Both the position numbers and the translations under genes were made by a program. From contig OX597814.1 in the NCBI GenBank assembly GCA_951406725.2, forward strand, positions 23,622,001-23,686,000: a stretch of 64,000 nt of DNA, in the 5' to 3' direction. Below are positions 3,661 to 37,990 of this stretch, one piece after another (the first letter of the stretch is position 1; each line of letters begins with the position of its first letter). The notes beneath the pieces were generated by a model. The model searched no databases, had not been told where the DNA came from, and saw only the letters and a list, made by a program, of their open reading frames with translations. This DNA is from Octopus vulgaris (taxonomy: Eukaryota).

Positions 3661-3773
3661 CGTTATTATCATCATTAATATTATTATTATTATTGTTATT
3701 ATTATTATTAGGATTGAGGTAACTCCTCCAGAAGATATAGAAGCAAAAAAGAAGAGTGCCATTGTTATCAAGT

Positions 3774-3814
3774 TAAACGATATTTCGACCTCTTGTGTGT
3801 CTTCCACAAGTTCA
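3774..3814 (-). ncRNA. Minimal hammerhead-like motif, variant core (UUGUGGA)
   Basis: tgaac-TTGTGGA-A-GAC(acacaagag)GTC-GAAA-TA-TC-gttta. Confidence 0.5.
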
Positions 3815-4004
3815 AAAAATAAACTTGTCAATCTACTTCATTTTTGGTAATATTTGTGAGATTGAGACACATGAGATGTCGAAATATCATTCACTTGATA
3901 ACAATGACACTCTTCTTCTTTTTTTTGCTTCTATATCTTCTGAAGGAGTTACCTCAATCCTATAAATATTGCCAAAAATGAAGTAGATCGACAAGTTTAT
4001 TCTT

Positions 4005-4045
4005 TGAACCTGTGGAAGACACATGAGCTGTCAAAATATCATTCA
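4005..4045 (+). ncRNA. Minimal hammerhead-like motif, CUGUGGA core, G12>A decayed
   Basis: tgaac-CTGTGGA-A-GACA(catgagc)TGTC-AAAA-TA-TC-attca; the sister partial copy at 3865-3893 retains GAAA. Confidence 0.5.
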
Positions 4046-4109
4046 CTTGATAACAATGGCACTCTTCTTGTTTTGCTTCTATTACTATTGTTGTTGTTGT
4101 TGTTATTCC

Positions 4110-14968: not shown

Positions 14969-15422
14969 GAGACATATGTAGTGTTTAGAAGAGCGAAAGA
15001 CATAGGGATACATTGGTAACAAGAATAAATACAAAGAATGGTGAGTCTTACATTATAGTAGGTTTCTTAGTTGATAATTCTGCTGCGAAGTGGATAGCGG
15101 ATGGAGGTTATTTTGATCTGTAGTCCCAAGTTTAAGTAAGCGCATATTTTCCATGGGTTTATTCTAGCTAGACTTTTCACCAGCGGTGTAAAGAAAGGGG
15201 GTTAACTCTAACTCATGGAGAAAAGAAGGCTAACTCTATTCATATTACTCAGTCTGGGGTGAGCAAGGAATTTATGTATCTTTGGGAGTTAAAGTTGTAG
15301 GAAGTTCATAGTAATGGAGGAAGCCCTGTGTAGGTGTAAAATAATTTACACCCACATAGCGAGTGGGGGTTGGGAGATGAATGTTTGCATGTAAGTAATT
15401 TAAGTGGTTCCAAATCTTTTAA

Positions 15423-15806
15423 AGATTTGAACTATCTATTTCTAGAGAAAAGGAACACAACTCCATTAACTACTTAGACACAAACTGCAACTTAGCCACA
15501 GGACTCCACGAACCCTATATAAAACCCAACTCTAACCTGAAATACATAAACGCATTCAGTAACCACCCAATCTTTATTAAGAGAGGTTTAGTACATAGCA
15601 TTAGCAATAGAATATCATGCCTCTCTTCCACCCAATATATTTTTAATAAGCATAAGGAAATTTATAATATCGTACTAGATAAAGCAGGATTTAAACAAAA
15701 AATTAAATACCTAGAACCCAATCGCTATACAAATAACCTAAATAACAGAAATCCACATGATAATACCATTAACACTAACCACACACCAAACGTCACTATA
15801 AACTAA
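15423..15806 (+). pseudogene. Penelope-like reverse transcriptase fragment (ATG-less open frame)
   Basis: INYLDTNCNLATGLHEPYIKPNSNLKYINAFSNHPIFIKRGLVHSISNRISCLSS...LDKAGF matches the PLE RT pattern FLD..YRKP..Y..SNHP..R..LSS; followed by an Asn-rich linker. Confidence 0.85.
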
Positions 15807-17893: not shown

Positions 17894-18804
17894 AATGAAG
17901 CCAGTATGCTCCGATGGATGTGTAATGTCAGTACTCATACTTGGCAGAGTGTAAGTACCTTGAGAGAAAAGCTGGACCTAAGAAGCATCAGTTGTGGTGT
18001 GCAAGAGAGACGTTTGCACTAGTATGGTCATGTGGCGAGAATGGATGAAGATAGTTGTGTGAAAAAGTGCCACACCCTAGCGGTTGAGGGAACCTGTGGA
18101 AGAGGCAGACCCAGGAAAACCTGGGACGAGGTGGTGAAGCACGACCTTTGAACTTTAGGTCTCACTGAGGAAATGACTAGAGACCGAGATCTCTGGAAGT
18201 GTGCTGTGTGCGAGAAGACCCAGCAGGACAAGTGAGTCCTTAACCAGTGGCCTTCTACATGAGATGGAGCCAGCCTACGTATGCATACCTTCCCTTCTTG
18301 GGACACAAAACTCTACTTGTGAAGACCTGTTGAGGCAAGTGAGGATCAGAATCGAAATCGATCAATTGAAATTGCAGATGTGTTACCAGTGCCGGTGGCA
18401 TGTAAGAGAACCTTCCGTTTTGCGACCGTTACCAGCGCCACCCCGACTGGCCTCATGCCGGTGGCACGTAAAAAGCACCATCCGTTCATGTCCGTTGCCA
18501 GCCTCGCCTGGCCCCCGTGCCGGTGGCACATAAAAAGCACCATCCATTCGTGTCCATTGCCAGCCTCGCCTGGCCCCCGTGCCAGTGGCACATAAAAAGC
18601 ATCATCCGTTCATGGCCGTTTGCCAGCTCTGTCTGGCACCTGTGCGGGTGGCATGTAAAAAGCACCCACTACACTCACGGAGTGGTTGGCGTTAGGAAGG
18701 GCATCCAGCCATAGAAACACTGCCAGATTTGACTGGGCCTGATGAATATAGTAGAACGTCCAACCCATGCTATGGAAAACGGATATGATGATGATGATGA
18801 TGAT
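17894..18804 (+). mobile_element. 5'-truncated RTE-clade LINE (ORF C-terminus 17894-18235, 3' UTR with about 60-bp tandem repeats, (GAT)n tail)
   Basis: [12 protein letters not shown]...RRLH*YGHVARM...EGTCGRGRPRKTWDEVVKHDL...RDRDLWK; repeated gccggtggcacgtaaaaagcacc. Confidence 0.92.
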
Positions 18805-30625: not shown

Positions 30626-31933
30626 CAAGCTTCTACAGTTTCCATCAACCAAATTTACTCACAAGGCATTGATCAACTCAGACTTATAGAAAAGGTTCCT
30701 TATTTAAAGTGCTGAACAGTGGGACTGAACTTAAAGCCACCTGGTTACAAAGTGAGCTTCTTAATCATGCAGCTATCAATTTCTAACAAGTACAGGAAAT
30801 TAATTTGAGGCAGGGTACAGTTGACTTTACCAACCCCAGTTTGACTGATATTTTGATTTATTAATCCTGGAATGATAAAAAGCAAAGATGAAATCAGTGA
30901 GATTTGAACTCAGAAGATAAAAAGTAGCATATGTTAAACCTGCAAAGCTTTTATCTCATGCTCTACTGATTCTGCCAGACTATAGCCCTTTAGATATATT
31001 ATTAGAAATTGATTACTATATTCTATACGCATGCAACATTTTCCTTAAATTCAGTCTGGCTCTTCCCATTTTGAGGTCGGGGATACATCCTACAAATATT
31101 CTCTCATCAATAGTGTAACCTTTGACCATATTTCTATTTTTACTATAATTATTTCTTTGAATTTCTTTCATGTTATCAGCTGATGTATTGGATTTCTACT
31201 GACTATAATAATGTTATAGATCTTTTATTCCATCCTGTATACATAAGTGTCTGGAAACATTGAGATAAACATCACTATTGTCTGAATACTGACCTGCATT
31301 TTGGAAATTGCCAATATGTCCTATATTTTCAGCACTGTTCAAATTTATCATTGGTAGATGCAGAATGGAAGATTATAACTTTTATTAAATATCTAAATCA
31401 ATACTTGCTATTATTTCAGAAAATGATATAATGTAGAACTATATCATAAATAATCTCTTCCTACAAAAAAATTTATAAAATAAAATTGTTACTCAATTAA
31501 CTAATTTAATTATTTTATTTGGCTTCAGAAATAAAAGTGGACTTTAGTGAAAATGGTTTCCATTAAAATATAAGCACGGAAATTTGTTATAAGGTATAAT
31601 TAAGATTGTAATGATAATTAAAATGCTTCTCCCAAATAAGTGTTGCTCAGAGCAACAAGATGACATTGGATGAGAGAACTGGTATTTGGTTTCACAAAAT
31701 ATTTAGTATTTGATTTCATTCTCTGTTGATTGTCTTCTTTAATTTTTTTTTCTTGCTTAGCAAAGTCTAAAGTTTATGAACTGTTATTGGGCAACATGTG
31801 TCATATATTTTGTTTTTATTTACTGTAGGAATAGCTAATCCAATGACATACACACACACACACACACATATATATATCAACATCATTTAATGTCTGCCTT
31901 CCATACATACATACACATATATGTGTATGTATG

Positions 31934-32086
31934 ACGAAGACAGGTGGTGTAGAAAACAAACAGATGTATTAGTATAACGCTCGGGAATTGAAAAATTCTT
32001 TTACGTTTCGAGCCTACGCTCTTCCACAGAAAGGAACACAGAAACAAGGAGAGAAAAAATGTGTGTAGTGGCTACCGATCAACGTG

Positions 32087-32090
<4 letters not shown>
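31934..32090 (-). mobile_element. Short hammerhead-bearing element (probable Penelope-derived non-autonomous element) within TA-rich microsatellite
   Basis: Contains the HHR motif; enclosed by a perfect 29-bp direct duplication (31877-31905, 32121-32149). Confidence 0.7.
31998..32033 (-). ncRNA. Minimal hammerhead motif with non-canonical CUGUGGA core
   Basis: cttt-CTGTGGA-A-GAGC(gtag)GCTC-GAAA-C-GTA-aaag: perfect 4-bp stems I and II, ACGT palindromic stem III. Confidence 0.7.
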
Positions 32091-32123
<33 letters not shown>

Positions 32124-32329
32124 ACATCATTTAATGTCTGCCTTCCATATATATATATATATATATATATATATTGAGTAATTATAGTTAATATACAGAT
32201 AAATTAACGGGATCACTCTTGTTTTTGTTGTTGAGACCTAAGTCATCCCTGATGAAACAGACTTGCAATCAAAAGTATTCCAGCTGTGACCATCCCATCT
32301 TTTTCCCAGCAATAAATTACTTTAGATTA

Positions 32330-37321: not shown

Positions 37322-37990
37322 AGGCGATGACAAGTGACTGAGACCTTTGGAGATATGCTGTGCTTGAGAAGGCCTGGCAAGCCATGTGAGACCATAACTG
37401 TGGCCTATGCCAGTGCAGCATAACCAGCCCATTTAAGAGTACCCTTTAATCATTGAGCAATAAGCTGTTTGCAAAGACCTGCTGAGGCAAGTGAAATCAT
37501 TGCCATGGTTGATGAGGGTACCGCCTTATTAGTACCCGTGCCAGTGGCACATAAAAAGCACCATTCGAGTGTGCTTGATGCCAGTGCTGTGTGACTGGTT
37601 CCATGCTGGTGGCATGTAAAAAGCACCATTTGAGCTTGGCCGATGCTAGTGCTGGCTGATGTTCCTGTGCTGGTGGTATGTAAAAAGTACCATTCGAGAG
37701 TGGTCATTGCCAGTGCTGCCTGACTGGCTCCTGTGCTGGTGGCACATAAAAAGCACCATTCAAGTGTGGTTGATGCCAGTACCACCTGGCTGGCCCTCAT
37801 ACTGGTGACACGTAAAAAGTACCCACTACACTCTCAGAGTGGTTGGCATTAGGAAGAGTATCCAGCTGCAGAAACTTTGTCAGATCGGATTGAAGCCTGG
37901 TGCAGCCGTCTGGCTTGTCAGCTCTCAGTCAAACCGCCCAACCCATGCCAGCATGGAAAACAGACGTTAAACGACGACGGCGGTGATGAT
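37322..37990 (+). mobile_element. RTE LINE 3' end with tandem 3' UTR repeats
   Basis: MTSD*DLWRYAVLEK, five gtggca..taaaaagcacc units, (GAC/GAT)n tail. Confidence 0.88.

Follow-up and report, generated by a model that had tools for sequence, protein, structure and literature searches.

A family-wide U6 variant of the minimal hammerhead motif in a putative Neptune-type Penelope-like element of Octopus vulgaris

The closest described counterparts of the motif considered here are the minimal hammerheads of metazoan Penelope-like elements (PLEs), especially the Neptune motif of Acropora digitifera (Cervera and De la Pena 2014, PMC4209133). These motifs lie in the pseudo-LTRs (pLTRs), have no loop on stem III, carry a palindromic ACGU and a short stem I, place a nucleotide between A9 and stem II, contain G10.1-C11.1, and occur mostly as solo truncated copies with a near-identical stem II; the octopus motif shares all of this with them. 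In the parts of that paper drawn on here, an extra base after A9 is the consensus, A6 is present in every one of the 56 representatives of Fig. S3 and the core variant described is U3-A8, whereas the octopus family has a fixed U6. The canonical PLE minimal hammerheads are described there as slow, of low activity and in need of a dimer.

In the case of position 6 itself, a natural substitution is found in the Bcep176 hammerhead, where A6C leaves slow, low activity in Mg2+ (PMC3088659, PMC7151607) and Mn2+, which the motif prefers, gives rescue (PMC7151607); as presented in these sources Bcep176 is a phage with C6, in contrast with a U6 motif of putative activity that sits in a high-copy animal retroelement. 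The PAc (Poseidon) hammerhead of the green anole likewise occupies a PLE pLTR and gives no sign of obligatory cleavage, judged there from RNA reads and here from genomic 5′ ends. PAc belongs to another PLE clade, its protein-aided cutting has been demonstrated (cleavage occurs only with the PLE protein), its dead mutants still insert in vitro, and a position-6 change goes unmentioned in the portions of the report consulted (PMC11167929). Pairwise mutagenesis of a type III hammerhead, as summarised in PMC9901934, gave low activity for every U-turn mutant except the C3-G8 swap, and no second mutation restored them. In PLEs the hammerhead is slow and, in one reconstituted system, dispensable.

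The motif described here was found in a stretch of 64,000 nucleotides (the window) from the AT-rich, 2.8 Gb genome of Octopus vulgaris. Its features, and those of its surroundings, are as follows:
31933 to 32090, minus strand: putative remnant, clipped on both sides, of the 3′ pLTR end of a Neptune-type PLE (family A, G7 subfamily)
31998 to 32033, minus strand: minimal type I hammerhead motif, stem I of 4 bp and stem II of 4 bp
32033-32030 and 32001-31998, minus strand: stem I of the window copy
32029-32023, minus strand: core C3 to A9, with U6 at 32026 and G7 at 32025
32022, minus strand: extra A after A9
32021-32010, minus strand: stem II hairpin, pair probabilities 1.0
32009-32006, minus strand: GAAA
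32006-32003, minus strand: palindromic A15.1-C-G-U16.1
32002, minus strand: predicted cut site, after A17
31877 to 31905, plus strand: left member of an exact 29-bp duplication, which reaches 38 bp (from 31868) when the adjoining AT repeat is counted
32121 to 32149, plus strand: right member of the duplication, likewise 38 bp long when counted from 32112, within an (AT)n tract

Read on the minus strand from 32033 to 31998, the sequence is cuuu-CUGUGGA-A-GAGC(guag)GCUC-GAAA-CG-U-A-aaag, with position numbers taken by comparison with Fig. S3 of PMC4209133. The hammerhead layout on a CUGUGGA core that had been proposed in a sequence-only reading of this DNA is thus found, with both stems intact. 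Stems I and II, G10.1-C11.1, the extra base after A9, the palindromic 15-16 segment and an NUH cut site are those of a minimal PLE hammerhead; the core departs from the canonical CUGANGA, U6 taking the place of A6. The extra A after A9, which had been counted with U6 as part of the variant, is present but is not new, being the published consensus mentioned above.

The description of the piece as a cleanly folded mini-element does not hold. The 156-nt piece folds no better than its shuffles (z = +0.37, with 115 of 200 shuffles as good), the 44-nt motif alone reaching z -1.41, and what looked like an element is a remnant clipped at both ends, whose relatives continue for ∼25-30 bp beyond its 3′ end and upstream reach a PLE reading frame. 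The enclosing 29-bp duplication is exact, as claimed, but it is no hallmark of the family: flanking duplications of at least 12 bp occur at only 3 of 57 family loci, these being the window copy and one tandem pair, so that the 29-bp duplication is peculiar to the window copy, possibly as a target-site or local duplication. At E ≤ 1, the 101 Rfam matches in the window include no hammerhead and consist of microsatellite-driven miRNA noise; this miss may be attributable to the absent stem III, not to U6. The output of a repeat finder run on the whole window was dominated by simple repeats.

The window piece is 93-96% identical to 29 other loci fetched by similarity, and 72% identical, gaps included, to both pLTRs of two intact elements (L176 and L177). 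In five further loci (L223, L225, L227, L230, L240) the motif of the window's CUGUGGA subfamily lies ∼690-850 nt downstream of remnants that encode an endonuclease (EN) and are 71-86% identical to the L177 protein. The pLTR identity and the position of the subfamily downstream of EN remnants together mark the window piece as evidently a clipped PLE tail rather than a separate mini-element; within the window no remnant of a Neptune-type ORF was found. The link to Penelope reverse transcriptases (RTs) that had been conjectured from the letters is borne out, as full-length copies with RT and GIY-YIG domains bear the motif and the window's own subfamily adjoins EN remnants. Copies of this family (family A) are truncated variably upstream, have a common 3′ boundary and often lie within TA repeats.

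One locus retains an ORF end with GIY-YIG-like sequence, and a search with it gave 117 scored matches, many with open frames; the CUGUUGA motif was present in 24 of the 30 loci fetched, within the stretch covered. L176 and L177 are full-length, with a 1,062-aa frame that matches RVT_1 (E 1.3e-7) and, at its C-terminus, GIY-YIG (E 0.006, under the curated cut-off), and in which a DKG motif and a CxxxxCxxC linker can be read directly from the translation. In both, two motifs 4.5 kb apart flank the ORF, and both pLTRs, which are 99.8% identical to each other in L177 and 97.0% in L176, have U6. Pfam gave no match in the partial Neptune ORF or in the Hydra-type ORFs described below. The RT/GIY-YIG frame, the DKG motif, the linker and the motif-bearing repeats match published features, and the element fits a Neptune-type PLE. 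Neptune-clade EN+ PLEs, as described in the sections of PMC8557442 available, have a DKG RT, a CX2-5CxxC linker, a C-terminal GIY-YIG, partial tandems that make up pLTRs and microsatellite insertion, as here, though the clade of the octopus element is judged from motifs and Nematis has the linker motif too.

A count of the variant against the canonical core, which had been suggested as a check, shows how common U6 is. The pattern CTGTNGA..CGAAACGT has 24,317 matches genome-wide, well beyond chance as judged by the 148 of a reversed-pattern control; with the same tail, A6 has 8,776 (control 135) and C6 or G6 together 1,192 (control 91). A shorter-stem pattern, which permits U or A at position 6 and covers short-stem families absent from the 8,776, adds 8,001 matches, with no U6 in the first 100 listed. 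U6 motifs (24,317, one pattern) thus stand to A6 motifs (∼16,800, two patterns) as ∼1.45:1, both counts demanding the CGAAACGT tail and excluding other hammerhead types. Most of the first 100 A6 matches listed belong to a long-stem family (L092-L110, the main one) with a 7-bp stem II, inserted in TAA/ATT repeats. At 18734-18790 (plus strand) of the window, a common repeat contains CUGAUGA with a 7-bp hairpin and then GAAA, where neither a matching stem I nor a cut-site segment is evident. A CTGTGGA at 18094 lacks a hammerhead tail and presumably belongs to the coding sequence of a different retroelement.

U6 is present in all 29 loci that were fetched by similarity, a sample biased towards the query. 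A second sample, chosen independently of the core, came from an 18-nt tag that lies downstream of it and has 23,889 matches (control 0), of which the first 30 loci were examined: the motif is kept in 27 and missing in 3, and U6 is found in 27 of 27. In these copies N7 is A, U, C or G (10, 10, 5 and 2 copies) and H17 is A, U or C (19, 7 and 1), with G in 0 of 27. The G7 of the window copy, which had been taken as part of the variant, is not: across subfamilies N7 can be A, C, G or U, and the variant is CUGUNGA. In contigs of six runs from four organisms, no alternative letter reaches a share of 10% at position 6; on the window copy, N7 and H17 do vary. The claim that the core does not reflect random decay stands, since the family consensuses have U6 rather than CTGANGA, as do all the tag-selected copies in which the motif is kept, and a lineage-wide core variant, not copy-specific decay, is supported by these sequences.

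No natural U6 hammerhead is reported in the titles, abstracts and passages searched, though the work of Lunse et al., reportedly devoted to small PLE hammerhead variants, further supplements or repeat databases may hold one. The same applies to the portions consulted of PMC6765202, PMC12192606 and PMC6962438. The finding is a family-wide U6 in a known motif of a known element type, neither a new ribozyme class nor a new type of element. It amounts to a young, intact and very high-copy PLE lineage altered at a position regarded as near-invariant, with A6 sister families in the same genome, and this pairing of U6 and A6 provides a natural comparison between selection for cleavage and selection for the fold alone. 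Over half of the motifs of the type counted here would escape surveys with fixed CUGANGA descriptors.

In a tree built from 35 pLTR ends, a split at 100/100, with a bootstrap not fully settled, sets 21 U6 copies and one A6 copy (L091) apart from 13 A6 sisters; a broader tree took in 120. The A6 of L091 is probably a back-change. The A6 sister motif is similar to the published Acropora Neptune motif, a resemblance that makes A6 the likely ancestral state. Five U6 subfamily consensuses differ at 1-2 of 36 motif sites, only ever N7 and H17, whereas 7-34% of their flank sites differ (p < 0.05 by Fisher's test for 8 of the 10 pairs, the pairs being non-independent, the flanks low in complexity and the copies gathered by a core-like pattern). 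C3, G5, G8, A9, G12-A15.1 and U16.1 are unchanged in family A; stem I, loop 2 and the extra A are equally fixed, yet the patterns do not require them. N7 and H17 are the positions that hammerhead catalysis leaves free, and the confinement of changes to them favours retained hammerhead function. Stem II and loop 2 are sequence-invariant, with no covariation within family A, so recognition of the sequence by a protein, or at the level of DNA, explains their conservation equally well.

Outside the genome group, the U6 pattern occurs in 19 stretches of metagenome sequence, of which 18 are similar to the published coral Neptune motif. These loci, which were chosen for U6, hold 18 U6 and 7 A6 copies, and they are read as sporadic mutants of an A6 family rather than as a wider spread of U6. 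The remaining stretch (L209, 601-629) is unlike the other 18 and has CUGUGGA, with stem II formed by GAGC/GCUC and a stem I that looks plausible.

The same core had also been said to recur in an otherwise dissimilar repeat at 3.7-4.1 kb of the window (family B):
3710 to 3860, minus strand: family B unit, a 151-bp repeat, with a hammerhead-like motif at 3814-3774 that has U3 and U6 (UUGUGGA)
3865 to 4082, plus strand: family B inverted partial tandem (3865-3961 and 3964-4082), with a motif at 4005-4045 that has CUGUGGA and A for G12 (AAAA for GAAA)

The recurrence is real for the family, which has U6, but both window copies are damaged, one by U3 and the other by AAAA. A strict family B pattern has 328 matches in the genome (control 0); among the first 100 listed, 93 have U6 and 4 have A6, and ∼48 also carry U4A, 21 of them in one array. 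In family B stem I is 5 bp long, the palindrome reads AUAU, and a U-A pair replaces C-G at 15.2-16.2. With the array excluded, its stem II has changed on both sides, 37 copies being divided into 29 A-U, 7 G-C and 1 mixed; the stems of families A and B differ in sequence and pair in both. Family B has A6 relatives of its own and probably gained U6 independently of family A.

Family B occurs as short inverted or tandem clusters and as the one array (L057, G000:C1:33626236-33629317), in which 21 motifs recur every 151 bp, all of them CAGUUGA, with two core changes. To judge by its sequence the array looks like a retrozyme-type array, with a ribozyme that is probably dead, and the spread of the U4A subfamily points to relaxed catalysis there. 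Non-LTR retrozymes, as far as they are described in the parts used of PMC7229834 and bioRxiv 10.64898/2026.07.22.740005, resemble family B in consisting of short units in tandem, each with a single type I hammerhead, and in having no ORF found. The 151-bp unit lies under the 170-400 nt reported for them, and family B differs in its core (U6, or A4 with U6) and in its weak self-pairing (z -1.75 and -0.48). No mobilising ORF could be tied to family B in the 30 loci tested. A link to a Hydra-type PLE ORF at one of these (L036/L113) was rejected, as 39 other copies of the segment lack the family B piece; that element's relatives also have an A6 motif of their own.

Genomic 5′ ends bear on whether the motif cuts. 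None of 22 long family A copies starts at the cut site (+28), and 10 of the 22 run uncut across the position of the upstream motif, a pattern that fits dispensable cutting and shows no sign of any cutting. Three of the 22 (L175, L297 and L311) have 5′ ends at +319 to +329 from C3, within 10 nt of each other and ∼300 nt downstream of the hammerhead, possibly a transcription start or a preferred truncation point. In predicted folds with 8-nt flanks, U4-G5-U6 pairs with A15.1-C-G at a probability of 0.5-0.98 in all five family A representatives, falling to 0.00-0.23 after a U6-to-A swap; with 25-nt flanks this pairing is predicted in only 1 of 5. Cofolding of two motifs did not yield the stem III dimer; taken by itself, the ACGU duplex has -3.7 kcal/mol.

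There is about an even chance, in our judgement, that the motif is a weakened, non-essential ribozyme, with a predicted activity that probably depends on a dimer and a protein, and likely kept by selection. The ancestor of family A would then have acquired A6U once, starting from a canonical A6 motif. The RT of the element would copy uncut read-through RNA from a point that lies ∼85-110 nt downstream of the cut, and would insert tails, mostly 5′-truncated, at TA repeats. Stem III would come from the pairing of two motifs by way of their ACGU palindromes, and U6 is predicted to reduce the rate through loss of the A6 contacts and to zip U4-G5-U6 onto A15.1-C-G as an off-state. A doubtful but serious alternative is that the motif is catalytically dead, and conserved as a binding or folding signal for the RT/EN protein or as a DNA-level promoter element of the pLTR. 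Changes at A6 are strongly deleterious in vitro in the published work drawn on, the sequence of loop 2 and stem II is constant beyond what pairing requires, no long copy begins at the cut site, and family B also tolerates U4A; in the systems described, anole PLE RNA with a dead hammerhead inserts still (PMC11167929) and Naiad PLEs thrive without canonical hammerheads. Against a dead motif stand the restriction of between-subfamily changes to N7 and H17, with the other core positions kept, and the measurable activity that natural A6C variants retain in the accounts cited (PMC3088659, PMC7151607).

That the hammerhead is fully competent, the extra A, the GUAG loop or the dimer geometry offsetting U6 so that CUGUNGA is an alternative active core, strikes us as very improbable. 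U6 does outnumber the canonical motifs counted, it is the state of the youngest intact elements seen, and it occurs in two dissimilar families. The extra A, however, is also present in canonical A6 families and is hence no U6-specific compensation, the U-turn mutants described in PMC9901934 were unrescued by a second mutation, and even canonical PLE minimal hammerheads are reported as slow (PMC4209133). We give equally little credence to the idea that U6 is neutral or mildly harmful and was fixed by chance in a founder, with its apparent conservation due to the shortness of the sequence and to ascertainment: a single origin does account for all of family A, the motif is just 36 nt long and the copies of the constraint test were picked by a core-like pattern, but the motif-independent tag sample agrees with that test, and stem I, loop 2 and the extra A are as fixed as the core though free of the pattern, while the flanks diverge by up to 34%. 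A bolder reading, improbable too, would make CUGUNGA a selected, switchable core that arose twice, in which U6 shuts the core on the ACGU or AUAU palindrome until the element's own protein or another metal ion opens it; such throttling would have made the U6 Neptune lineage the genome's most abundant hammerhead carrier.

The genome also holds young Hydra-type PLEs with canonical hammerheads (L178 4640-5700 and L179 4100-5700, both minus strand, and L180 1900-2700). These have RWR/RWL and DKT motifs in frames of 900-960 aa, one of them in 99.9% identical tandems, and their hammerheads combine A6 with a stem II that is very long (∼50-85 nt) and a stem III that is short and palindromic. A fragment of a Hydra-type PLE reverse transcriptase lies in the window at 15411-15719 (plus strand); its identity to the L179 protein is 61% across 101 aa. 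Related tandem repeats of 62 and 66 bp, with a common GGCAC..AAAAAGCACC motif, occupy 18456-18666 and 37544-37823 of the window.
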